Assembly: GCA_964523705.1 (NCBI GenBank)
Contig: CAZFYA010000004.1
Location: 1-59,406, forward strand
Length of the DNA stretch: 59,406 nt
Source: an uncultured Gammaproteobacteria bacterium
GTDB taxonomy: Bacteria; Patescibacteriota; Microgenomatia; Levybacterales; UBA12049
Reading direction: 5' to 3'
Shown here: positions 1 to 12,719 of the stretch, in pieces
How the letters are laid out: each line of letters begins with the position of its first letter
How positions within the stretch are numbered: position 1 is the first letter of the stretch
The notes under the pieces: model-generated
The model's database searches: none
The model's input: the letters and a program-made list of their open reading frames with translations, nothing else
What the model was told of the DNA's origin: nothing
Translations under genes and position numbers: made by a program

Positions 1-3000
1 TCAACTTTAAAATATGACTGAATTTGTCCACTATTTACCCTAAGAGAGTAATATTCGGTTGAAGTATATTTATAGATTATCGGCAATGCTCCTGTTGCTG
101 TTGTTTTAAACCAAGCACCATAACTCCAATCACCGGTTCCAGGGTCAAGTGCATTGTTTTCAGTAACAGTTACATAACTACTACTTCCATTAAAGCTTAG
201 TGCCTTTCCAAATTTTCCATTATTGTTCCATGTTGCTGAAGTAATTGTTCCGTTTAAAATACTTCCTCCATAGCCCGAGTTATATACTGTTGTTCCATGC
301 CCTTTATCAAACTTCCAATAACCAACTTGAGATGCAATAGGGGATCCACCAGTAGGATGTCCCGCATTCATATCTTCAACTATTTGCCCAGGGGTGCGGG
401 CGTAATTATATACTTTTACCTCATCCAAAGAAGACTTTAGATATCTACCACTAGCGTTACCAAATTGTAGGTTTGTAGAATTAGATAAGTTTGCAATGGA
501 GGATGATGTTACAGCGCCATTATATATGCCGTCTACATAAAATTTATATGAAGTACCGGATGTTCTTGTAACAGTAATATGGTGCCAACCAGAAGAAGGA
601 ACGTTAGTGAATGGATAGTTAACATTAAAAACACCTGCTGTATCGTTGGTATCAAGAAAATGCAGGTTGGTAACGGGATTTCCAGTTGCAATACCCCATG
701 TATTAGCAGGTGCGCTAGTTGTAAATCCTTTACTTACAATTCCGTTCCAAGTGGAAGATCCACCTAGCGGAAACTTAATCCATGATTCAATAGTAAAATC
801 TCCAGTACCAAAATTGCCAACATTATTACTTAATGAGACATAATCATCGCTTCCGTTAAAACTTCCTCCTTTTCCATATTTTCCAGTTGTCCAGTGACTA
901 CCTGTTCCATACCATGTACCATTGTTTGAATTTCCACTGGAGTCTGCGACAGTGGATCCTGAGGCATCCTCGAAGGACCAATAACCAACCGGTCCTGGAG
1001 CCCAGTTATATAGAGCAGAAACTTCCGAAGAGGAGAGGCCTCGATTATAAATTCTTACTTCATCAAGTTTCCCATCATAATAATAAGAACTTGGGCCGCT
1101 TCCCATATATACATTAGTATTTAAGGGAACTCTTGTGTTCACGGTTGTTCCAACTCTTTGACTCATTGTTTGTTTTACTCCGTTGATATACATTTCGGAG
1201 GAGGTAATATCTCCATTGTTAATAACAAAAACAACGTGTTTCCATCCTCCTGATAATCCAGTCGGAGCTATCCCCCAAATATCAGATGCGTATGTATTAA
1301 TTCCAAAATGACTAGTGCCTATAAAGAAAAGATCCATACTTGAAGATCCTCCAAAATTCATAACCATTTGATTGCTACCAGTACCATCCCAATTCATCCA
1401 AAATGCAACAGTAAACTTACTTCCGCTTGATGTAGGAAGACTTGAGACAGCAGTAGTTGAACTGTCACTTGATCCATTATGGTCTCTTCCATTAGCAAAT
1501 TTTCCATTCGTTACGCTTGTTCCAGTAACTGTACTTGTATATCCATTTCCAGAGCTATCAATAAGGTTTCCAGAGTCTTCATCCATTTTCCAATAACCAA
1601 CTAAACCATTTGACAAAGCATCAGAGAGCTCATTATCTCCTCCAATTTGAGAAGAAACACCCTTAACAGAACCACGAGATGTATAATCTGCCCTTATCTG
1701 CTCTGCTGTCCTTTCGTAGTTATATACTTTTACATCATCGATATAGCCTTTAAACGGATAGGTATTTGAGCCTCTCATTCTGCCGATTTCCCAATTACTT
1801 GTTCCAATGCTTTTACTAACCGTGTTTTCATATTCTTTTACAGTATTATTGCCGTTGATATAAAGGTTGTAATTACCAGAATTATCTCTTGTAAATGTTA
1901 TTTGATACCAGGTGTTGGGTTGAAAGTCATATTGAGTCCCAAATGTTTCATCTGCAATCCATCCATCTACATATCTTGTACCATTAGCGTCTACGCTAAA
2001 GCGAAGTTCAAAACCAGAATTATAGCCTCCTTTGGAAATAATTCCTTGCCATGTGCTATTTGCTATTGCTTTAGTTGTTTTTGCCCAAACTGAAACTGAA
2101 AAAGCGCTAGTGTCAAATTGTAGATTTGAAGGGTTTCCTGCACTCACATAGTCATCAGTGCCATCAAAAAACAAACACTTAGAAGAAATACATTGATTTT
2201 CAGATTGCCAAGTAGCGCCGGTTATTGTTCCATTGTTTTTACTAGTTGTTGAGTCATGGGCTGTTGTTCCATAACCCTCATCAAATTTCCAGTAAGCAAC
2301 AGGTCCTTTAGAGGTTTCTTCTCCCTGATAGTTTATAAACGTATCATTCATTGATTTGTATTCTGCAGCTATCCAATCAGCAGATCTGGCGACCTTTTCA
2401 ACTCTGAATTCATCCAATTTTCCATTTAGAGGATTAACATAACCATCCCCAATAGTAAAAGTACGATCATTAATTGCAGGATAAGAACTGTCATATGTGT
2501 TCCCTGTGAGATATGCCCCGTTTTTATACCATTTATAACTATAGTCACTTGAGTCTCTAACAGCTGTAATATAAACCCATTGGCCTTGAAGACCAACGCT
2601 TGAGGCATAGTTGCTATATGGAACATCATTTCCTCCGTTGCTTCCCATGTACCAACTAAGAGCACAACTTGTTTCAAGAGTCATTGTTGACCATCCGCCA
2701 AAAGCTTGATCGTATGGATTTTGTCTTGAAGGAGAAGCGCAACTATTTATATACATCCAATAGGAGATAGTAGTATCAGCAGTTAAGATAGATGAACCAA
2801 CTGTTCCAAGGCTAATTCCGGTTCCGGATGAGAAATCTACTGCAGGACCTACTTTTCCAGCTTGGTTAAATTTAATTCCTGTTGTTGGTGTTCCACTGGT
2901 GTTTCCAGTGCTATCATTTACAGAGCCACTGCCTGTTGTCCCAGCGGGGTCTGCTAAATGGTAAACAAGTGAATAGTCTGTGGAGCTCCAGGTAGTTGTT

Positions 3001-3515
3001 TTGCTTTGTGCATCAGTTGCGTAAGGGTTTCCATAGTATATAAAGATAGAGTCAGTTGTTGATGAAGCATCAATTTGCGGTACTTCAACCCAAATATATC
3101 CTTGTCTTGTAAATTGATCGAATTTTTCTATTTCATAATCTAACAAAGTAGTACCATCTGAATCAGTAAAGCGAATATCAGCCCCATTAGTTGCTGCTTT
3201 AGCAAAGTCAAAATTACTGGGAGTAAGCTTAACTAAAACCTTAAAATTAGTTAAGTCTTCATCTTGAGCAGAGTTGTTAAAAACTAGTTGCTTTCTATTT
3301 TTCCAGCTATCATCATACCAAGTTGCCTCTGATTTTGTAGCATTGCTTAAGGTATAAATAACACTTGGAATAAGAACTAAAAGAAAAGCAACAACACCGG
3401 TCATTACATATAGCTTTTGTCTACTTGTTAACTTCCCATACCAGGTAACAGGAAGCAAGTGTTTTAAAAATGTTATTGTTTTTTTAATTATTTTTAATAG
3501 ATTAGGTATTTTCAT
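1..3515 (-). CDS. Large membrane-anchored DUF2341 + multi-LamG (concanavalin A-like jellyroll) surface protein, >1170 aa, 3' end runs off the window
   Basis: Not in the ORF track because no stop lies in the window. Manual translation from ATG at 3515 (2 bp after the stop of the 2863-aa gene) gives MKIPNLLKIIKK...TGVVAFLLVLIPSVIITL (TM), then WYDDSWKNRKQLVFNN...DIRFTDSDG...IWVEVP (DUF2341-like). It then has repeated GPVAYWKFDEG / GLVGYWKMDE / GPVGYWSFED ... G.LDEVRIYN LamG units (4 complete, 1 partial). Frame checked at the start, at ~2.3 kb and at base 1. Confidence 0.88.
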   Translation of the reverse strand, partial: MKIPNLLKIIKKTITFLKHLLPVTWYGKLTSRQKLYVMTGVVAFLLVLIPSVIYTLSNATKSEATWYDDSWKNRKQLVFNNSAQDEDLTNFKVLVKLTPSNFDFAKAATNGADIRFTDSDGTTLLDYEIEKFDQFTRQGYIWVEVPQIDASSTTDSIFIYYGNPYATDAQSKTTTWSSTDYSLVYHLADPAGTTGSGSVNDSTGNTSGTPTTGIKFNQAGKVGPAVDFSSGTGISLGTVGSSILTADTTISYWMYINSCASPSRQNPYDQAFGGWSTMTLETSCALSWYMGSNGGNDVPYSNYASSVGLQGQWVYITAVRDSSDYSYKWYKNGAYLTGNTYDSSYPAINDRTFTIGDGYVNPLNGKLDEFRVEKVARSADWIAAEYKSMNDTFINYQGEETSKGPVAYWKFDEGYGTTAHDSTTSKNNGTITGATWQSENQCISSKCLFFDGTDDYVSAGNPSNLQFDTSAFSVSVWAKTTKAIANSTWQGIISKGGYNSGFELRFSVDANGTRYVDGWIADETFGTQYDFQPNTWYQITFTRDNSGNYNLYINGNNTVKEYENTVSKSIGTSNWEIGRMRGSNTYPFKGYIDDVKVYNYERTAEQIRADYTSRGSVKGVSSQIGGDNELSDALSNGLVGYWKMDEDSGNLIDSSGNGYTSTVTGTSVTNGKFANGRDHNGSSDSSTTAVSSLPTSSGSKFTVAFWMNWDGTGSNQMVMNFGGSSSMDLFFIGTSHFGINTYASDIWGIAPTGLSGGWKHVVFVINNGDITSSEMYINGVKQTMSQRVGTTVNTRVPLNTNVYMGSGPSSYYYDGKLDEVRIYNRGLSSSEVSALYNWAPGPVGYWSFEDASGSTVADSSGNSNNGTWYGTGSHWTTGKYGKGGSFNGSDDYVSLSNNVGNFGTGDFTIESWIKFPLGGSSTWNGIVSKGFTTSAPANTWGIATGNPVTNLHFLDTNDTAGVFNVNYPFTNVPSSGWHHITVTRTSGTSYKFYVDGIYNGAVTSSSIANLSNSTNLQFGNASGRYLKSSLDEVKVYNYARTPGQIVEDMNAGHPTGGSPIASQVGYWKFDKGHGTTVYNSGYGGSILNGTITSATWNNNGKFGKALSFNGSSSYVTVTENNALDPGTGDWSYGAWFKTTATGALPIIYKYTSTEYYSLRVNSGQIQSYFKV

Positions 3516-3517
3516 AA

Positions 3518-6500
3518 TTAATTAATAATTAACCAGTTAAACGGTATTGGTTTAGTTGTAAATTCATCAATTCCAATTGTGAATGAACCTTCAATTCCAT
3601 TTAATTCTTGGTCTTCCGGTACTTGTCTTAGAAGATATGGATTTAGTCCATTAACTGAGCCAATTGGAGTAATATAGATTAGAGAATCTTTAGTAATTAA
3701 GTCATTATTAATAGTAATCTCTTTTTGTCTTGCACTTATTGTTGCAATTCCAGCAGATCCGGTTGCAAGTATTTCGTTATCAGATAAGGCTAGAGCTTCT
3801 TTAACAAAGTTTAAATTAAGCTTTCCAAAAGTACCAGAACCTGAAGCAATAATATCTCCTTTTTGGCTAACTGATAGAACTGCTGAATCGCTGGCATTAA
3901 CAATAGCTAAGTCATTATTGGCAATTGGGCTAATTATTCCTGTTGCTAATTTTCCGCCAACCGTTACGTCTTTTGCAAAAGTAGCATTACCTAAAACCGC
4001 TAGGTTGCCGCTTTCATCAATTTTAACTAAACCTGAAAGGAAAGAAATCCCGCCTTGTCTAAGTGGTTGAATTTCAAGGTCTGCTCCTAAAACATTAATT
4101 GCTCCGTCAGCTAAGATTAGATTTCCACCAACTGCTAGTTGTCCGGCAATTGAGGTGTCAGAAAGACTGGTTGGTCCAAATGACATTAAACCTTGAGTAA
4201 AGGTGGCCAGTTTTGTCTGAAGTTTATCAACATAGATAAACTGTCCTGACATTGAGGAGATATCCATATAGTCTGAAGAAACAGGTATTGTTGCTAATTC
4301 ACCAGCTCCTGTTGATTCGTAATAATTATTAGTTATGTATTGAGCAGAGATAGTGCTACTTGATATATTTAATCCTTCTATATTTTCAGCAATAATATTT
4401 TTAGCTCTTAGCGTTCCAGCAAAACTTGCACTTCGGGCGGTCAGGTCGCCCTCAGTGTAAACATTTCCGCTATCATCTATTCTTGCAACTACCTCTTTTG
4501 TTTCACTATTTCTTACCTCAAGTGATGAATTACCAAGTGCTAACTCAACTGTTGAGTCTGATGCTAGAGGAGAGATAATACCTGTTTTTAACGTATCAAT
4601 GCTGGCAATAGGAGAGGAGATTTCGTCTCCTGATATTAAGTAATTATTATTTAATATATTTTCAATAGATGATGCGATGTATTCTTGAATTGTTTGTCCA
4701 CCAATACTTAAACTTTCGGTTGCAATTTCTGAAGCTGACAATGCTCCAGCCTGAAGATTAGCGGCAATAAGAGTTGAGAATCCTCCGGTTCTTTTAATTG
4801 AATTACCAAGACTATCAATTAATGCATAGATTGGTTCTCCAAATTCACTAAAGGTTTTAGCAATTGAAAACTCACTATATATTGGAGAACCGGACATGGT
4901 TGCATCTTCTAGCTTTTCATTGATTAAATCTTCTGCTCCCGGAACAACAAGGCCAGTGATATTTGGATCAGTCTCATCTGAAATATTTCCCCAAGACATG
5001 TGATCAAACCTTGGAGCAGTTAGTCTAAACGAAAGTGAAGTAGGTGAGTCGGAAAGGAAAGTAATTTTCCTATTATCAACATCTTTTTTGTACCAAACCC
5101 TAGAAGAGGAGTCAGGTGTTAAAAGAATTGAAGTAAGAGCGATATTTGGATCAGTTACTCTTGAGAAGAGCCAGAGATCAGATGCAACCTCTTGGTTATT
5201 TAAATCAATGGTATATGAATACGCCTCATCCAGTGCATTATATGAAAGGGAAGCTTTGCCTGTTACTTCTTCTTTTACTCCAACCATTGAGGTTCCATAG
5301 GTTGAATATTTTCCTCCATCAATTGTGTACAAAGGATCAATAGTAGCTGCTGTTAATTTTCCTGTTCCATTTGGACCAACGTAAACATCTCCGTCTGATG
5401 CAACTCTAAATTGAGTTGTTCCGGAATTTGATGCAACTAAAAGATCCGCGCCTGAAGCACTACTTAATTGGTCAATGATAACAGCTGCATTTCCAAGGCT
5501 GTTTTTACTTACATGAAGCCCTGTTGAAGTTAGTGGAGAAGCTGTACCGATTCCAACAGAACCATAGGTAGTAAGTGATGTTCCGGTTGCAGCAGGATCA
5601 AGGAAATAACTGCTATTATCTATATCATAGAATGACGCACCATATAATACACCGGCATTGGTAAGGTAAAACTTGGTTGTTCCTGAAGTGGAAGCAGTTA
5701 GAATATTTTGATCTGTCCCTGTGTAATTTAGATTAACCAAGGCTTTACCTACGGTTTCTCCTTGAACATCTAATCTGCTGTTCGGATCGGTTGTCCCAAT
5801 TCCTACATTGCCGTTATAGTTAATACGCATTCGCTCAGTTGGGGCAGTATCTGTAACCACGTTTCTTGTTCCAAAGATTAAATCCCCATAAGTATTACCA
5901 CTAATTGTTGATATTTCTTGATAACCTATATATCCTGGAAAGTGAGTTGTGCTACCGTCTTTATATCCCATTCCCATTAAGCGATAAGAATTTGCTCCCC
6001 ATTCTTGGCCACCAAGTCCTAAATAGTATGCAGCTGCATTTATTGATGTTGGGGCAGTTTCAGAATCAGTAGATGCTAGTCCAATTTGTAAGTGTGCATC
6101 TGGATCAGATATACCAATGCCCACATCTCCTCTAAATGAGGAAACATTTGTACTTGGATAAAATCTTACTGCATGGTCATCCCAAGCTTCTCCAATGTAT
6201 AAATATGACATTGCATCACCTGAGCCAAATCCTCCATAATTAGCCCAAACAGTGTCTGCAGCATTATTAATAAAGCCATAACCATAAGCCCAGCCTCCAG
6301 ATGACTTATTTGGTCTAATAGCGATACCATTTGCGAAATAGCTATCGAGAATAACCGTAGATGTGTTTGGCCCTGCACCCCGAACTTCTAGTCTTCCAGC
6401 TGCGTCAACAACACCTATGCCAACATAACCATCATTAATGGTCATGCTCACAGCATCATTAGTACCAAATTGTAGATAATCATCTGATATAGTTCCAATT

Positions 6501-9500
6501 AATAAGGCATCGCTTTTGGCATCTGAATAAGCGTTATTCTCTGGGTCATAGTCATTAGTACCAGAAAATCCAATAATTCCACTTGTTCCACCATTATCCT
6601 GAGTTAATTTTAAGAAAGGATTATCAGATTCAGTAGCGTTGTCTATATCTGCTTCAAGATAAATAGCAGCATCAGCAGTATTTTGAATATGTAGATTATA
6701 GCCTGGGCTTATCGTCCCTATCCCTACATTTCCACCCCAGCCATTATCAGGCATAACTATTAAATTTCCGGATACAGAGGCTGTTGCTTGTCCGGAGTTT
6801 AAGTTAAGTACTGCAAACTTGGCAGAAGAGGTTGCTTGTCCACCAATAAGAAGATCTACGGTAGAGTTGTTAGGGTAGAGTGCACCATCTGATTGAGTCC
6901 AATAGCCTGTACTTCCTAAGCTTACCCCTTCAATGTTATTAACATACAATGTGTCCCAATATGCCCCTTCAGAACCTAAATCATAGGTACTATCAGTACT
7001 TGGATTAAAGGTTCCCCCCATGGTAGCTATTAGTCCTGTAGGGGATAAAGAGAGGTATCCAAGTTGATCTGTTTTGATATCAGAATATACAGAGCCGTCA
7101 GTTGATGTTAATCTTAACTGTGTTCCTCCTGCACCTGATAATACATCTAATTTTGCATCAGGGCCTGTTGTGCCGATACCGACATTACCATCTTTTGTAA
7201 ACTCTATAACAGGTATGTTATATTCATTGTTTCTAATAATTCTTAGATCTGCATTGTTTGTTGCATCGTAGCTAATATAATTAGTGCTGTTTCTTGCAAA
7301 GGCTAAGCTATTTGGAGATATAGTAAAATAATTAGTTGGATCTCCTCCATCTGCTAATCTTATTGTGCCTACAACATGAAGTGGGGTATATGGATTGGTT
7401 GTCCCAATTCCTACATTACCATTGTTTAAGATTGTCATTTTTGCTGATAATCCAGAATCTCCCCCAACCGAGGTTTGAAAATCAAGCCTATTCCCATTTA
7501 AAACATCAATAGTAGATGGGGAAGATCCTCTAAAAACCAAAGATCCAGAAGTTGATGCATCCCCGGCAATATCAAGTTTAGCAGTTGGACTCGTTGTTCC
7601 AATTCCAACATTTCCACCCTGGATAGCCATATTTGCTACCCACGAGGAGCTTGTATCTGCAGAAAACTCTAAGCGAGTATTTGTTCTGTCATATCTAAGT
7701 CCGCCACCAGAATATGTATTAACAGTTGTTGCTTGTAGCATTAATGTTGCTGTTGAATTTGCATCAGTTGAAAAATTTCTTAATCTAAATAAAGCATCTT
7801 GTCCAGCTAACGTCTTTTGGGCAACAAATACTCCATCTGGACTCGTTGTTCCAATTCCTACATAACCCGTATTGTCTGCAATAGTTAGGGCATTCGTCCA
7901 TGTATTTGGTCCAGATTTATATTGAAGATTTAAGGCTCCTGTTGGAGCTTTAATTGTATTTACAGCCATGGTTCCTGAAACAGAGGCATTTCCGATGACA
8001 TCTAATTCTTCCAATGGAGAGGTAGTGCCAATGCCTACATCGCCATTATTTGTTATTGTTAATTTGGGAGAGGTGAATCCATCACTATACGCAAAGTAAA
8101 GATTATTTGTAGAATCTTGATCTTGACCAATAGTCCAAGTTGTACTCCCGCCCCTAGCAAATTTAAGGTATTGGCTGCCGGTTGACCAGTTAGCTCCACC
8201 ATTTAGTAACAGTCCGACATCTGTGGCTGAAAGTTCCAATTTTTCATTTGGATTTATAGTTCCAATTCCCACATTTCCACCCCAGCCATTAGTTGGCATG
8301 ACAATAAGGTTTCCAGAAACAGAAGCTGTTGCTTGTCCTGAATTAAGATTAAGTACTGCAAATTTAGCGCTTACTGTTGATTGACCACCAACCAATAAAT
8401 CAACAGTAGGGTTGTTAGGATATAAAGTGCCATCTAATTCTGATTGAGTCCAATAGCCTGTACTTCCTAAACTTACACCTTCAATGTTGTTTACATATAA
8501 TGTATCCCATTTTCTATCAGTTGAACCAAGATTATATGTACTATCAACAGAAGGATTAAAGGTCCCTCCCATGGTTGCAATTAGTCCTGTTGGAGCAAAG
8601 GAGAGGTATCCAAGTTGATCTACTTTGATATCGGAATATACAGAACCGTCAGTAGAGGTTAGTCTTAATTGGGTTCCACCTGCTGCTGATAGAACATCCA
8701 GTCTTGCATCAGGTCCTGTTGTTCCAATTCCAACATTTCCTGAATTGTTAATAATAAACTTAGTAGCTCCTGAAGCAGAAGCAGAGAAAATATCCCCTGT
8801 TCCTGTTTGATTAAATGTTACTAATCCATTTGAGCCAGTATTGCCTGAAACGGATAGTTTTGAAATTGGAGTTAAGTCTCCAACTCCTAAGTTACCGTTA
8901 GAATTAAGTATCATTTTAGTTGAATTATTAACTCCGAAATAAAGATTTTTAGAAGCAGCTGTATTTAAGTAAGTTGTTCCGTCGTCTTTTTGCAGCAATG
9001 CAAAGCCATTTCTATTAGCATAAGTAGCCATAGTAGTGTTGCTAAAATAAGCATAGTAGTTATTTGAGCCGTGTCCTTCGCTAAAAGCTCCACCATCACC
9101 AATTGCCGCATAACCAATTCTTGCGCCTTTATTTATCGTAGATGGATAAACATCTAAGGCTTGAGTAGGACTTATCGTCCCTATCCCCACATTCCCACCC
9201 CAGCCGTTAGTTGGCATGACAATAAGGTTTCCGGAAACAGAAGCTGTAACTTGGTTATTAGCAATACCAGTTACAGAGAATAGGGCAGAGGATGTTGCGC
9301 TTGAACCCAAAAGAAGATCATCGGTTATATTTCTTGGTGATAATGCACCCAGTACTCTTTGCCATTCATTACTGGCAACAGTTGTACCAACAAGGTTATT
9401 TACATAAATTGTATCCCAGTATGCATCAGTTGATCCAAGATTGTATGTAGAGTCAACACTTGGATTAAAGGTTCCTCCCATGGTGGCAATAAGTCCTGTT

Positions 9501-12109
9501 GGGGTAAAAGATAGGTAACCCAATTGATCTGTTTTGATGTTAGAATATACAGAACCGTCAGTAGAGGTTAGTCGAAGCTGGGTTCCTCCGGCTCCTGCTA
9601 ATACATCCAATTTTGCATCAGGCCCTGTTGTGCCGCCAATTCCAACATTTCCATTGGTTCCTTCGATAAAGATAGCATCGGTATATGTATTGGAGCCCAT
9701 CTTTATATCCCTATTTGCAAAAGTTTGAATATATGCTTTGCCACCACTATTTCCTATTCTTAGAATTTCATCTCCTCCGTCACTTCCTCCTCCGACCTGA
9801 AAAGTATATCCATTATCAATTATTATTCCACCTTCTATTTCTAATTTTGCTTCAGGATTAGTATTTCCAATCCCTAAATTACCAGTTCCTAGGTTAAACC
9901 AGGCATTTTCGTTATTGGTTCCCGGTACATGAAAGTAGGCAGAGGAGGATGAAGTACTGCCTATATTTAGCGCATCTGTTAAATTAACAGGAGACATTGC
10001 CCCAAGGTTTCTCTGCCAATATTGAGTTAGAGCAACTCCGCCTGAAATAATGTTGTTTACATAGAGGTTATTCCAGTAGTTATCAGTTGAACCAATGTTA
10101 TATGTATCAGGCGTTAAGGAGAGTAGATTTCCCGAAGATACTGTTCCATCGTTATCTACGGTGAATTTAGCAGTTCCCGAGGTTGAGGCGCTAATTAATG
10201 GACCAGTGCTTGTTTGATTGATAGTAAGGGCTGATTGGCCACTTGAGGATGCTAAAATAGCCAGTAAATCATCAATTTCTACTGCTCCTATGGCAGTTGA
10301 AATATTGTTGTTGTTTGTTGTATTTTGTAATGGTTTCTGAAGATCAATTACTCCAGTACCATCAGGGCTAATTTCTACATTGCTGTTCGTGCCTGCAACC
10401 GTGGTTAAAGCTAAAACATTTCCCGAAATAGTAAATTCTCCTCCTGTAGCTTGGAAAACAGGCGTTGCAGAACCACCAATGGTTAGATTACCTGAAGAAT
10501 CCAGAGCTAAAACAACGTTTTCTTGAGTAGCACTTGGATCGGTTATTGGTAAAAGTCCTTGAAGTGTTTCGGCATTTGCTGCATAGGCAACAGTTGCTAT
10601 TCTTTGCCTTGGCTCAAGTTCAGGTGTGGTTTCAACCGTAACTCCAAGCCAAAGTGAAGCATTTTCCGTGAAAAGCGTTGCTGGAATAGCTGTGTTTTGG
10701 CCAAGATATATATTAAATATACCGTCAGTGTCAGGATCAACAGAATCTATCTCTTGCCATAAAAGAGCAGCTCCTGATGCTACCTCATCATCATATATCC
10801 CAAAACGAAGCGCAGTTAAGCTTTCAATTGGATTATCATTATCATCAGTTAATCTTCCCTGAAAGGAAAGAATACGAGGAGGTGCAGTTGGTAAAGCAGC
10901 AAGTACAGGTTGTTTTAATTTAGGTTCAATAAAAAAGGCATTATATATTCCAAAACCAAGTCCTGCCATAAAGATAACCAGAATTGCTAAGTTGAAATAA
11001 TGGACAATTGAGTATGAATGATACTTTTTGTACCATTCTGGTCGTGTGTATTTGGCATGATGAATAACTTTTCTATGCCAAGGATATGAGGCTATCGAGA
11101 CTGAAAGTGGAGCGTAAAGTTCCTTGCGGATATTATCGATTGATTTAGGATTTATGATTGATGATTTATGATCTTGAATCTTGAATCTTGAATCTTGAAT
11201 CTTGGTGAAAATTGGTTTTCCTTTTCTTTTCCAATTAAGGTAAGTTATCTTTTCACCAAATGAAGCCAGGTGGGAAGTAATTGCTAAGTCAAATGCAATT
11301 CCACTTAATTTTCCAATTTTTTGAAATAGCCTAAGAGGAGGAAATGATGAGTATTTGGTATTTGGTATTTGGTATTTGGTATTTGGCGTTTCTTTTATAG
11401 CTATTGGCCTTGAAGTTTTAAGTTTTTCCAAGTTTGAAACTTGTTCTTTTTTTATGTCTCTGACTAATCCTTCTGAAGCTGCCCATGCGGTATATCTTCT
11501 TAAAGAAGACAGTTTTCTATTGATTGTTAGAGGAGAAAAGCTTTGTGAAATTAGCCTTTTTTTATACTCCTCAATAAGGCTGTTGTCTAATTTTTGAAAA
11601 AGGTCTTTTTCAGATACGTCCCAAGTTTCTTTTATGCCTGTTACTTCCTCGGCCCAGTTTAAAAATTGTTTAACATCAATGACGTAATTTTTAATCGTTA
11701 AGTGAGAGGCATTATATACGTAAAGATAATCTTTAAAATCTTTTATTCTGAAAGGATCGTTTTCTTTTTGGTTTTTAGCTTCAGTTTTATCAAAAGGAGA
11801 GCGTGAAACATAGCCTTCTAGCTTTAAAAAATTAAAAAACTTTCTTAGAGAAGAGAAGTGCCTCTCAATAGAACGAACTGATACACTTTTACCTTCGTTT
11901 TTAGGATTAAGCCTATCTAGTTTGTATTCGTTGAGAATAAAAGAAGAGATGTTATCAGCTGAAAATTCTTCATGGTATTTAGCTTCGTACCAGCGGATAA
12001 ATTGGCTAACATCAGCTTTGTAGTTTTTAACCGTTAGCTTTGACGGTTTATCCTTTTGACTTTCTAAGAATTTGAGAAAAAGACCTATAAATCGTTGGGC
12101 AGTGTTCAT
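3518..12109 (-). CDS. Giant 2863-aa protein: two tandem tyrosine-recombinase N-terminal core-binding (SAM-like) domains, linker, single TM helix, then extracellular fibre/adhesin-like repeat region
   Basis: aa ~5-105 (FLKFLESQ..SKLTVKNYKADVSQF..SVRSIERHFSSLRKFFNFLKLEG) and aa ~118-215 (FKDYLYVYNASHLTIKNYVIDVKQF..SPLTINRKLSSLRRY..EG) match the XerC/XerD N-domain pattern. No R..K..HxxR..Y catalytic domain follows. TM is FNLAILVIFMAGLGFGIYNAFF. Sixteen G[NDYS][VL]G[IV]G.T.P..KL.V repeats follow, typical of tail-fibre-like CPR giant proteins. Confidence 0.85.
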   Translation of the reverse strand: MNTAQRFIGLFLKFLESQKDKPSKLTVKNYKADVSQFIRWYEAKYHEEFSADNISSFILNEYKLDRLNPKNEGKSVSVRSIERHFSSLRKFFNFLKLEGYVSRSPFDKTEAKNQKENDPFRIKDFKDYLYVYNASHLTIKNYVIDVKQFLNWAEEVTGIKETWDVSEKDLFQKLDNSLIEEYKKRLISQSFSPLTINRKLSSLRRYTAWAASEGLVRDIKKEQVSNLEKLKTSRPIAIKETPNTKYQIPNTKYSSFPPLRLFQKIGKLSGIAFDLAITSHLASFGEKITYLNWKRKGKPIFTKIQDSRFKIQDHKSSIINPKSIDNIRKELYAPLSVSIASYPWHRKVIHHAKYTRPEWYKKYHSYSIVHYFNLAILVIFMAGLGFGIYNAFFIEPKLKQPVLAALPTAPPRILSFQGRLTDDNDNPIESLTALRFGIYDDEVASGAALLWQEIDSVDPDTDGIFNIYLGQNTAIPATLFTENASLWLGVTVETTPELEPRQRIATVAYAANAETLQGLLPITDPSATQENVVLALDSSGNLTIGGSATPVFQATGGEFTISGNVLALTTVAGTNSNVEISPDGTGVIDLQKPLQNTTNNNNISTAIGAVEIDDLLAILASSSGQSALTINQTSTGPLISASTSGTAKFTVDNDGTVSSGNLLSLTPDTYNIGSTDNYWNNLYVNNIISGGVALTQYWQRNLGAMSPVNLTDALNIGSTSSSSAYFHVPGTNNENAWFNLGTGNLGIGNTNPEAKLEIEGGIIIDNGYTFQVGGGSDGGDEILRIGNSGGKAYIQTFANRDIKMGSNTYTDAIFIEGTNGNVGIGGTTGPDAKLDVLAGAGGTQLRLTSTDGSVYSNIKTDQLGYLSFTPTGLIATMGGTFNPSVDSTYNLGSTDAYWDTIYVNNLVGTTVASNEWQRVLGALSPRNITDDLLLGSSATSSALFSVTGIANNQVTASVSGNLIVMPTNGWGGNVGIGTISPTQALDVYPSTINKGARIGYAAIGDGGAFSEGHGSNNYYAYFSNTTMATYANRNGFALLQKDDGTTYLNTAASKNLYFGVNNSTKMILNSNGNLGVGDLTPISKLSVSGNTGSNGLVTFNQTGTGDIFSASASGATKFIINNSGNVGIGTTGPDARLDVLSAAGGTQLRLTSTDGSVYSDIKVDQLGYLSFAPTGLIATMGGTFNPSVDSTYNLGSTDRKWDTLYVNNIEGVSLGSTGYWTQSELDGTLYPNNPTVDLLVGGQSTVSAKFAVLNLNSGQATASVSGNLIVMPTNGWGGNVGIGTINPNEKLELSATDVGLLLNGGANWSTGSQYLKFARGGSTTWTIGQDQDSTNNLYFAYSDGFTSPKLTITNNGDVGIGTTSPLEELDVIGNASVSGTMAVNTIKAPTGALNLQYKSGPNTWTNALTIADNTGYVGIGTTSPDGVFVAQKTLAGQDALFRLRNFSTDANSTATLMLQATTVNTYSGGGLRYDRTNTRLEFSADTSSSWVANMAIQGGNVGIGTTSPTAKLDIAGDASTSGSLVFRGSSPSTIDVLNGNRLDFQTSVGGDSGLSAKMTILNNGNVGIGTTNPYTPLHVVGTIRLADGGDPTNYFTISPNSLAFARNSTNYISYDATNNADLRIIRNNEYNIPVIEFTKDGNVGIGTTGPDAKLDVLSGAGGTQLRLTSTDGSVYSDIKTDQLGYLSLSPTGLIATMGGTFNPSTDSTYDLGSEGAYWDTLYVNNIEGVSLGSTGYWTQSDGALYPNNSTVDLLIGGQATSSAKFAVLNLNSGQATASVSGNLIVMPDNGWGGNVGIGTISPGYNLHIQNTADAAIYLEADIDNATESDNPFLKLTQDNGGTSGIIGFSGTNDYDPENNAYSDAKSDALLIGTISDDYLQFGTNDAVSMTINDGYVGIGVVDAAGRLEVRGAGPNTSTVILDSYFANGIAIRPNKSSGGWAYGYGFINNAADTVWANYGGFGSGDAMSYLYIGEAWDDHAVRFYPSTNVSSFRGDVGIGISDPDAHLQIGLASTDSETAPTSINAAAYYLGLGGQEWGANSYRLMGMGYKDGSTTHFPGYIGYQEISTISGNTYGDLIFGTRNVVTDTAPTERMRINYNGNVGIGTTDPNSRLDVQGETVGKALVNLNYTGTDQNILTASTSGTTKFYLTNAGVLYGASFYDIDNSSYFLDPAATGTSLTTYGSVGIGTASPLTSTGLHVSKNSLGNAAVIIDQLSSASGADLLVASNSGTTQFRVASDGDVYVGPNGTGKLTAATIDPLYTIDGGKYSTYGTSMVGVKEEVTGKASLSYNALDEAYSYTIDLNNQEVASDLWLFSRVTDPNIALTSILLTPDSSSRVWYKKDVDNRKITFLSDSPTSLSFRLTAPRFDHMSWGNISDETDPNITGLVVPGAEDLINEKLEDATMSGSPIYSEFSIAKTFSEFGEPIYALIDSLGNSIKRTGGFSTLIAANLQAGALSASEIATESLSIGGQTIQEYIASSIENILNNNYLISGDEISSPIASIDTLKTGIISPLASDSTVELALGNSSLEVRNSETKEVVARIDDSGNVYTEGDLTARSASFAGTLRAKNIIAENIEGLNISSSTISAQYITNNYYESTGAGELATIPVSSDYMDISSMSGQFIYVDKLQTKLATFTQGLMSFGPTSLSDTSIAGQLAVGGNLILADGAINVLGADLEIQPLRQGGISFLSGLVKIDESGNLAVLGNATFAKDVTVGGKLATGIISPIANNDLAIVNASDSAVLSVSQKGDIIASGSGTFGKLNLNFVKEALALSDNEILATGSAGIATISARQKEITINNDLITKDSLIYITPIGSVNGLNPYLLRQVPEDQELNGIEGSFTIGIDEFTTKPIPFNWLIIN
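6712..9652 (-). repeat. Three ~480-bp (~160-aa) near-duplicate cassettes inside the giant gene (approx. 9172-9652, 8260-8740, 6712-7189)
   Basis: GTTGPDAKLDVL..AGGTQLRLTSTDGSVYS.IK.DQLGYLS..PTGLIATMGGTFNPS.DSTY.LGS...WDT.YVNN...ASVSGNLIVMP.NGWGGNVGIGT occurs three times with visibly high nucleotide similarity, separated by unrelated segments. Confidence 0.9.
11143..11204. repeat. Heptamer tandem repeat (ATCTTGA x~5 preceded by 4 degenerate ATTTATG-type units), in-frame in the giant gene linker
   Basis: atttagg atttatg attgatg atttatg atcttga atcttga atcttga atcttga atcttg; encodes KIQDSRFKIQDHKSSIINPKS. Confidence 0.9.
11351..11385. repeat. Heptamer tandem repeat (GTATTTG x5), in-frame in the giant gene linker
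   Basis: Five perfect units; encodes PNTKYQIPNTKY. Confidence 0.92.
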
Positions 12110-12143
12110 TCCCGAACCTCGCTTTTTAAAAACATGTAATTAG

Positions 12144-12171
12144 GTTCAACATTATACGGATTATACGTTTT
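12144..12171 (-). other. dif-like 11-6-11 site (putative Xer-family binding site) upstream of the giant gene
   Basis: Minus strand reads AAAACGTATAA-TCCGTA-TAATGTTGAAC versus E. coli dif GGTGCGCATAA-TGTATA-TTATGTTAAAT: 6/11 in the XerC arm, 8/11 in the XerD arm, 6-bp spacer. Confidence 0.45.
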
Positions 12172-12225
12172 ATCCAGCCAGTTGGCGGACAAGTAAGAAT
12201 TAGTTTTATATATATACATACTATT

Positions 12226-12255
12226 AGAATAAGGAGTTTTTTTATGAAAAGTCAA
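12226..12255 (-). promoter_or_regulatory. Sigma70-type promoter for the giant-gene operon
   Basis: TTGACT-N18-TATTCT on the minus strand, ~115 bp upstream of the ATG at 12109. Confidence 0.5.
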
Positions 12256-12719
12256 GAACCTAGAGTAATATACCGTTGATATATTTTTATGCATTCCGAT
12301 ATAGACAGGGAAGCGTATTTAGAATACAAAAAAAAGCAGAAAATTTGTCTTTTCACAGCTTCAAAATGCCCATTTTCGACTATTATTATACTTTTATAAA
12401 AATCGGTAAATCAAACAAACAGTATCAAAGAGTATCACTAGTCCTATAACTCGTTTTCACGAAAAAATTATCCTTTAGTTTTTTAGCCTCAAAAAAATTT
12501 GTTAAATTTGGCAAAATCTAACGTTTAGAAAATTTCTTATTAGCAATTATTTGTCCTTAGTGATAGGTTTTTTAGGGTGTTGTTTTTTATTGATTTTATA
12601 GGCATATAAAGAATTGCGGTTATGTCTTAAGGCTTAAAAACTTATAAACTTAAAATCCTTAATGCCGGTTGCTTTAATGGTTAAAATTTGCTTAAAATTA
12701 GTTTATTGACTAATTCTTT

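Follow-up and report, generated by a model that had tools for sequence, protein, structure and literature searches.

In the 59-kb stretch of DNA analysed here (the window, 34% GC), a block of about 36 nucleotides (nt), built of repeated -10-like words, precedes a giant gene coding for a protein of 2863 amino acids (aa), and the same word array was found in front of the orthologous gene in every locus examined. The element is real and gene-family-specific, and it is not a general type of promoter. It overlaps a 28-bp site which a preliminary description had taken either for the chromosomal dif or for the operator of the two tandem integrase core-binding (CB) domains encoded at the 5' end of the gene. 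The site is not a recombination site. The block is read here, tentatively, as an operator of -10 look-alike words recognized by the two CB domains of the gene's own product, a proposal which we place ahead of the other readings while regarding it as possible rather than probable.

The conserved block and promoter P1

The 28-bp site ends 34 nt 5' of the ATG at 12109. Its sequence, the direct repeat within it and the two perfect TATAAT hexamers were all re-found as first described. The sequence ATTATACG occurs on the plus strand at 12151 and 12160, which corresponds to GTATAAT on the minus strand at 12166-12160 and 12157-12151, and the direct repeat is therefore GTATAAT-NN-GTATAAT with an exact period of 9 bp. 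In the 59-kb window GTATAATNNGTATAAT has a single occurrence, and 0.11 occurrences are expected from shuffled sequences even with one mismatch allowed. The coordinates of the block, its units and the surrounding features are collected in Table 1.

Table 1. Features of the window around the block and in the giant gene; positions are those of the window.
Feature	Positions	Strand	Remarks
Giant gene	3518..12109	minus	2863 aa; block in its leader
Codons for single predicted transmembrane helix	10928..11008	minus	aa 368-394; Kyte-Doolittle mean 2.1
Codons for two tandem integrase core-binding (CB, SAM-like) domains	11468..12097	minus	CB1 about aa 5-105, CB2 about aa 118-214
Shine-Dalgarno GAGG and ATG start codon of giant gene	12107..12120	minus	GAGG 12120-12117; ATG 12109-12107
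Conserved promoter-proximal block, about 36 nt	12139..12174	minus	gene-first loci and motif-first scan
Block unit 1 (degenerate), GATAAA	12174-12169	minus	
Block unit 2, GTATAAT	12166-12160	minus	
Block unit 3, GTATAAT	12157-12151	minus	
Block tail, GTTGAACCTAAT	12150-12139	minus	slightly deviant from family consensus
28-bp 'dif-like' site of the preliminary description, AAAACGTATAA-TCCGTA-TAATGTTGAAC	12144..12171	minus (12171->12144)	chance resemblance; overlaps block units 2 and 3
21-bp strain-specific insertion with GCC-AACT-GGC palindrome	12174..12194	minus	missing in 80%-identical ortholog L001
Sigma-70-type promoter P1: TTGACT (12255-12250), 18-nt spacer, TATTCT (12231-12226)	12226..12255	minus	predicted
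TACTCTAGG, conserved word directly 5' of P1 -35	12259..12267	minus	as read from ortholog sequences
TTTTCAC word (GTGAAAA on gene's strand)	12350..12356	plus	one of two copies upstream of P1
Second TTTTCAC word (GTGAAAA on gene's strand)	12454..12460	plus	

For the comparison across the family, 80 species-level loci were taken from GTDB species-representative genomes with a profile of the N-terminal head of the protein, and ten more distant members were added; the gene-defined count comprises the 86 loci with at least 120 nt of upstream DNA. The tandem word was present in all 86, on the strand of the gene in 85 and inverted in one (L062). The block is kept down to about 28-33% head identity, and GTATAAT was also found in all of seven extra distant loci, which reach down to 28% identity to P0120. 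The consensus from the gene-defined set is nnATAAt-cn-GTATAAT-cn-GTATAAT-yTyGwrGCTaaa. Unit 3 was scored as GTATAAT in all 81 gene-defined loci scored, a figure that is due in part to the search pattern, and L074 has ATATAAT there. The first base of unit 2, equivalent to position -13 of a promoter, is G in 74 of these 81 loci and A in the other seven. The 2-nt spacers vary freely, ten dinucleotides being found (CC, CT, CA, CG, TC, TA, TT, GC, GT and AT). The family alignment holds almost no information in the -35 region of the words, and the bases at -15/-14 read c/n, with no TG extension.

The closest orthologs are in agreement with this picture. The direct repeat is kept in the 80%-identical ortholog L001, and the 50%-identical ortholog L002 has CCGTAATAAT-CCGTATAAT-CCGTATAAT at the same place, together with the conserved upstream promoter, in an intergenic region that has otherwise diverged. 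The motif pointed out in the window is thus strongly conserved upstream of the orthologous genes (86/86), but the conserved part is the repeat of 9-bp period with its tail and not the 28-bp layout of a dif site.

A motif-first scan, in which metagenome contigs were searched for the block alone (ATAATNNGTATAATNNGTATAATNTNGNNGCT), gave 76 loci. A CB-CB gene was located within 500 nt downstream in 64 of them and at 520-760 nt in five more; five had too little downstream DNA and two stayed unresolved, so that 69 of the 71 motif-first loci with enough downstream DNA carry a CB-CB gene downstream on the same strand. In 934 kb, comprising all the locus DNA fetched, the tandem word was found exactly once per locus; P0147, which had seemed a possible second copy on the complete chromosome OZ246394.1, proved to be identical with locus L056. 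The assignment of the element to this one gene family rests on both results, the 69 of 71 loci and the single occurrence per locus. With an identical word array across proteins diverged to about 30% identity, the block is among the most sharply conserved gene-specific non-coding elements that could be expected in Patescibacteria, and it is tied to a family that databases mislabel "site-specific integrase". No paper on the sequence, or on the family in Patescibacteria, came up in full-text searches of the literature.

The promoter-like site noted earlier upstream of the 28-bp site was reproduced by the promoter scan as the predicted promoter P1, and the same scan of the window called no promoter at the words of the block. 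Family-wide, P1 consists of TACTCTAGG, then TTGACA-N17/18-TAnnCT and then AATwGTAtg, and it was present within the 130 nt that precede the block in 125 of 131 distinct loci. Between the end of its -10 hexamer and the first full GTATAAT there are 21-59 nt, with clusters at 21-23, 31-34, 38-41 and 47 nt. The -10 hexamer of P1 drifts among TATTCT, TAATCT and TACTCT, whereas the words of the block do not, and a G at the -13 equivalent was present in 2 of 129 P1 sequences and in none of the six other promoters of the window.

Two further observations concern P1 itself. Its -10 hexamer keeps an anti-consensus C at position 5 (TAtTCT in 107 of 129 loci), and with AATwGTAtg and TACTCTAGG besides this C, P1 is under more constraint than would be required of a plain promoter. 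Another promoter-like site, TTGATT-N18-TATAAT (10/12, with G before TATAAT), is located at 12385-12414 of the window, about 130 nt upstream of P1; it shares with P1 a 610-bp intergenic region that is overall 91% identical to that of L001.

Block and start codon are separated by anything from 11 nt, in which there is no Shine-Dalgarno sequence, to more than 1 kb. In five loci (L032, L035, L039, L058 and L068) the start codon follows the last word by 11-17 nt, again with no Shine-Dalgarno sequence between, and in the long-distance loci the interval from block to giant gene is occupied by an open reading frame (ORF) for a conserved membrane protein of 52-57 aa, or by an inserted gene. Because this distance varies and ORFs may intervene, the block marks the 5' end of the operon rather than a ribosome-binding site.

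The single inverted case was found in a Levybacteria metagenome-assembled genome (MAG) from Lake Baikal (L062:2010-2045), where the whole block, with three GTATAAT units and the tail, is inverted with respect to P1 and the gene but remains between P1 and a small ORF. An assembly error, a fixed inversion and a switch are all possible explanations. An invertible promoter switch, considered on account of this locus, was not supported, no conserved or convincing flanking inverted repeats being found. No strand-change joints over the region of the window were seen in DNA contigs of four runs, which are contig-level data of low power.

The dif likeness of the 28-bp site

A chromosomal dif acted on by XerC/XerD, or another tyrosine-recombinase core site, would place the giant gene at the replication terminus. 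The likeness itself was confirmed: on re-counting, the arms matched those of E. coli dif at 6/11 and 8/11 positions around a 6-bp spacer (14/22 in total), the site is AT-rich and 28 bp long with the ATAA/TAAT motifs typical of recombinase core sites, and the adjoining gene codes for Xer-type CB domains. However, 31 positions in the 59-kb window reach 14/22 or more against the E. coli dif arms, and similar background counts were obtained with four other dif sequences (B. subtilis, H. influenzae, V. cholerae chromosome 1 and Caulobacter). A chance match, which the preliminary description had allowed for, accounts for the dif likeness. The direct repeat is above chance and conserved.

The anatomy of the site also differs from that of a recombination site. 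Xer sites have two arms of about 11 bp, inverted around a central region of 6-8 bp. The arms of the 28-bp site are direct repeats (CGTATAAT twice, with the 9-bp period), and the reverse complement of the right arm fits the left arm at 3/11 positions, so that dyad symmetry is lacking. The orthologs do not keep the XerD-like arm TAATGTTGAAC, the family consensus at this place being TAAT-yTyGwrG; it is the window's own tail GTTGAACCTAAT that happened to resemble the XerD arm. The 28 bp are accordingly not kept as a unit, and the protein encoded next to them has no catalytic domain.

As regards a position at the terminus, the local GC skew does switch sign near 10 kb, but the switch falls inside the giant gene with its compositionally biased Gly/Ser/Thr-rich repeats, and genes of both orientations beyond 12 kb retain a positive skew. 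The orthologous locus lies at about 58% of one complete Levybacteria chromosome record, as a terminus might, and at 89% of another, both figures being positions along the records and not distances from an origin. The element was found at two loci (L057 and L072) of one MAG, and it follows the gene family and not a chromosomal position. The dif likeness is a matter of chance, and both the anatomy of the site and its pattern of conservation refute the dif reading; the probability left to any recombinase core site at this place is next to nil.

The palindrome that had been described as abutting the site is present (GCC-AACT-GGC at 12177-12186), but its 21-bp segment is absent from L001, and it is therefore not part of the conserved element. 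The insertion shifts the block from 38 nt after the P1 -10 element in L001 to 59 nt in the window.

The giant protein and candidate readers of the block

In the giant protein, Pfam matches to PF02899 (E 5e-19), PF13495 and PF13102 were confined to aa 1-214, and no match to a recombinase catalytic domain was found anywhere in the 2863 aa. CB1 and CB2 are 33% identical and have in common the recognition-helix signatures LT(V/I)KNY..DV.QF..W and (S/T)I.R..SSLR(K/R). The AlphaFold2 model of aa 1-230 (mean predicted local distance difference test, pLDDT, 82.5) consists of two four-helix bundles, and its best Foldseek matches in the PDB are CB domains, namely 3nrw, lambda Int (1z1b), Brujita Int, XerA, IntI and Cre; the sequence profile of the head likewise finds 3nrw and XerA. 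The region ahead of the single transmembrane helix is basic (65 K+R versus 40 D+E in aa 1-360), and about 2470 aa of repeats follow beyond the helix. The predicted topology is a basic cytoplasmic head, one transmembrane helix and an extracellular fibre of about 2470 aa. The gene family is large, occurs in Levybacteria and other Patescibacteria, and is often called "site-specific integrase" in databases.

The operator alternative of the preliminary description is now the leading reading, in that a conserved and gene-specific repeat does accompany the tandem CB domains, which would be its readers. Several features argue for it. Identical words phased at 9 bp with free spacers form a pattern of protein contacts and not of an RNA helix. 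Two tandem, similar domains face two tandem, identical words, and the element is strictly co-inherited with the CB-CB domain, as the "regulon" of a single gene. The words are unlike an ordinary promoter because they have no -35 region and no TG extension while a canonical P1 with a near-perfect -35 stands 21-59 nt upstream, and because the -13 G, near-invariant in the words, is rare in P1 and in other promoters. The inversion in L062 fits an operator, since the promoter of the gene would not tolerate inversion.

The mechanistic steps, all of which we infer, would be as follows. The words would act as the half-sites of an operator and imitate an extended -10 element (G at -13 plus TATAAT), each of the two similar CB domains of the membrane-anchored protein reading one word. 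Bound in this way immediately 3' of the P1 start, the fibre protein would occupy its own gene, and transcription would be limited by a roadblock or by competition with sigma, giving autoregulation in a FliZ-like mode combined with a membrane-tethered topology like that of ToxR or CadC. The wider proposal, that the giant surface fibre is itself a transcription factor whose tethered head, on phased GTATAAT words, competes with or blocks RNA polymerase, so that fibre production or host-cell engagement would feed back on the gene, possibly in cis during synthesis of the nascent chain, is put forward as conceivable, with slightly greater reserve.

Several points weigh against the operator and partly in favour of a different reader. 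The word is exactly the sigma-70 -10 consensus and stays the same even among CB heads whose identity has fallen to about 30%, which suits a universal reader such as RNA polymerase at least as well. The orientation is fixed in 85 of the 86 gene-defined loci and in all the motif-defined loci with the gene downstream. A start codon 11-17 nt after the last word, as seen in some loci, is what would be expected if the tail were the region of a start site. The TTTTCAC(A) word described below (TTTTCACA) might just as well be bound by the CB domains or by a different regulator. Binding of the head to the block and the start position of P1 are both predicted, and the low-depth RNA contig over the ortholog L152 (below) could be contaminating DNA. 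Finally, the model presupposes that a membrane-anchored protein of 2863 aa would reach the DNA.

The main rival, in which the reader of the words is the housekeeping sigma factor and the block a second promoter or a pause site, is plausible but in our view somewhat less likely than the operator. If the block were a core promoter P2, its -10 element would be the last TATAAT and its discriminator yTyGwr, and transcription would begin within GCTaaa. Alternatively, sigma-dependent promoter-proximal pausing would be caused by the -10-like words, lying in the stretch that is transcribed early from P1. The family-wide invariance of the -10 consensus and the fixed orientation speak for it, as does the conserved tail at the position of a discriminator and start site, and the 11-17-nt leaders without a Shine-Dalgarno sequence would suit short-leader mRNAs. 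In the closest-spaced class 21-23 nt separate the P1 -10 from the first full GTATAAT, so that the degenerate unit falls among the first few transcribed bases of P1, a position which is covered by the range of sigma-dependent pausing (lambda PR', lacUV5). The block shares with such -10 and pause elements a perfect TATAAT in the predicted early transcribed region of a canonical promoter, but it differs from them in having tandem words that are strictly phased at 9 bp, carry a fixed G at position -13, are followed by a conserved tail of 12 nt, and have neither -35 nor TG extension. Two or three perfect copies in this phase would be needless for a promoter or a pause, the -13 G is not typical of other promoters in these genomes (2/129 in P1, 0/6 in the window), and the window and L001 differ by a 21-bp indel immediately 5' of the words, a difference that is tolerated. 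The inversion in L062 and the restriction of the element to one gene family likewise speak against reading by sigma.

No RNA sequencing run containing the window was found, nor any for the Hainich locus L105. In the peat metatranscriptome X11 there were low-depth contigs on the ortholog L152 and nothing useful on L127 or L083. Three of the L152 contigs fall within the first approximately 870 nt of the operon (L152:11659-12529), as compared with three in the other approximately 13 kb, and the 5'-most of them (11659-11812) starts inside the P1 -35 hexamer, crosses the block and enters the coding sequence. This contig, which may be DNA carry-over, weakly suggests that the block is transcribed from upstream; as the sole RNA fragment found, it counts, to the same weak degree, against reading of the words by sigma.

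The region around the promoter contains a second word. In the loci L003-L165, TTTTCACA (the TTTTCAC(A) word) is strongly enriched in both orientations: it was found at -300 to -100 from the block in 84 of 126 loci versus 4.5 expected, with a peak at -160 to -140, and downstream of the block in 61 of 126 loci versus 2.4 expected. Judged from its sequence and distribution it is probably a second regulator-binding site. TTTTCAC(A) resembles a relaxed DnaA box (TTWTNCACA). An identity of TTTTCACA with DnaA boxes (8-9/9 to TTWTNCACA) was nevertheless set aside on period, symmetry or distribution, and Fur boxes (hexamer or 7-1-7), PUF-type RNA sites and promoters of phage single-subunit RNA polymerases were set aside for the same reasons.

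The enrichment of this word indicates that the region has more than one reader, and it leaves some room for a third explanation, in which the block is the operator of another trans-acting DNA-binding protein, or an RNA-level leader that binds a protein or recruits ribosomes, while the CB head does another job, for example on the TTTTCACA words or on non-specific DNA. The low-depth RNA contig, which suggests that the block is transcribed, and the short-leader loci, in which only the AU-rich block precedes the start codon, would both suit it. On the other side, a separate one-gene regulator always found alongside CB-CB genes is less economical than autoregulation, and an RNA element would be lost by the inversion in L062. 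Rfam gave no family at the gathering threshold and nothing credible at E<=1, the predicted fold of the window leader was not significant (z = -0.75 versus shuffles), and no covariation was seen in the varying 2-nt spacers. An RNA element was rejected as the main explanation on these three grounds, and we hold the third explanation as a whole to be improbable.

In the predicted fold of the leader, GAACCU of the block tail (12147-12142) is paired with AGGUUC (12119-12114), a stretch that includes part of the Shine-Dalgarno sequence. This pairing, a possible translation-masking hairpin, can form in the window and its nearest relatives but not throughout the family, and it is not significant against shuffles.

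The proposed operator has a known counterpart in FliZ of E. coli, which has an integrase-CB-like DNA-binding region and no catalytic domain, binds extended -10-like words at positions -14 to -7 with the decisive contact at -13, and was shown experimentally to repress flhDC from a non-promoter -10 look-alike just downstream of the start of a sigma-70 promoter (Pesavento & Hengge 2012, PMC3367168). In the window, too, -10 look-alikes follow a canonical promoter, their -13 base is near-invariant, and they adjoin a gene for CB domains without a catalytic domain. FliZ, however, is small and soluble, has one CB-like region and a global regulon, and recognizes single sigmaS-type words (C at -13, TATACT-like), whereas the giant protein has two CB domains, a membrane anchor and a fibre of about 2470 aa, and its presumed targets are GTATAAT words in two to three copies with a 9-bp phase at its own gene only.

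With ToxR, CadC and TcpP the giant protein would share a cytoplasmic N-terminal DNA-binding head, one transmembrane helix and an extracytoplasmic part, all as predicted, and the targets of these regulators are also repeats at or near promoters. It differs from them in that the head is a pair of CB (integrase SAM-like) domains and not an OmpR-type winged helix, and in that a giant fibre and not a small sensor domain would stand outside; regulation by the giant protein is again presumed.

If the autoregulatory reading is true, -10 mimicry of the FliZ kind and a ToxR-like topology would be united in ultra-small episymbiotic bacteria, and a giant surface fibre would be regulated by recombinase core-binding domains that had been recruited to this task and tethered to the membrane. 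Binding by the head would then amount to a new coupling of a cell-surface organelle to its gene, in organisms not yet culturable alone. If instead RNA polymerase reads the block, it would represent an unusual multi-(-10) promoter or pause architecture, relevant to the annotation of promoters in the Candidate Phyla Radiation (CPR).

Neighbouring genes and related records

The gene directly downstream of the giant gene (window 3-3515, minus strand) overlaps it by stop and start codons and is likely co-transcribed; its product, of at least 1171 aa, has four Laminin_G_3 domains and a DUF2341 domain. The small protein encoded between the block and the giant gene in L004, L006, L031, L062, L067, L076 and L160 is a single-helix membrane protein of 46-57 aa, exemplified by MKTRKVGQDL...YKPSIA..KMFWLSIAVTISFVLSQIYL, and is not encoded in the window.

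The best sequence match of the head profile among solved structures was chain 14 of PDB 9i5v, a Porphyromonas gingivalis ribosome (E 1.2e-8). The match covers the N-terminal approximately 100 aa of a 401-aa protein deposited as 'RaiA', which apparently has an integrase CB-like domain there; only 34 residues of this protein are modelled (PMC12123416).

Many of the GTDB-representative MAGs with this Patescibacteria family (L003-L082) are titled 'uncultured Gammaproteobacteria bacterium' (MAG TPA_asm records), and others Sulfotelmatobacter or Methylomirabilota, which are evidently wrong organism labels.

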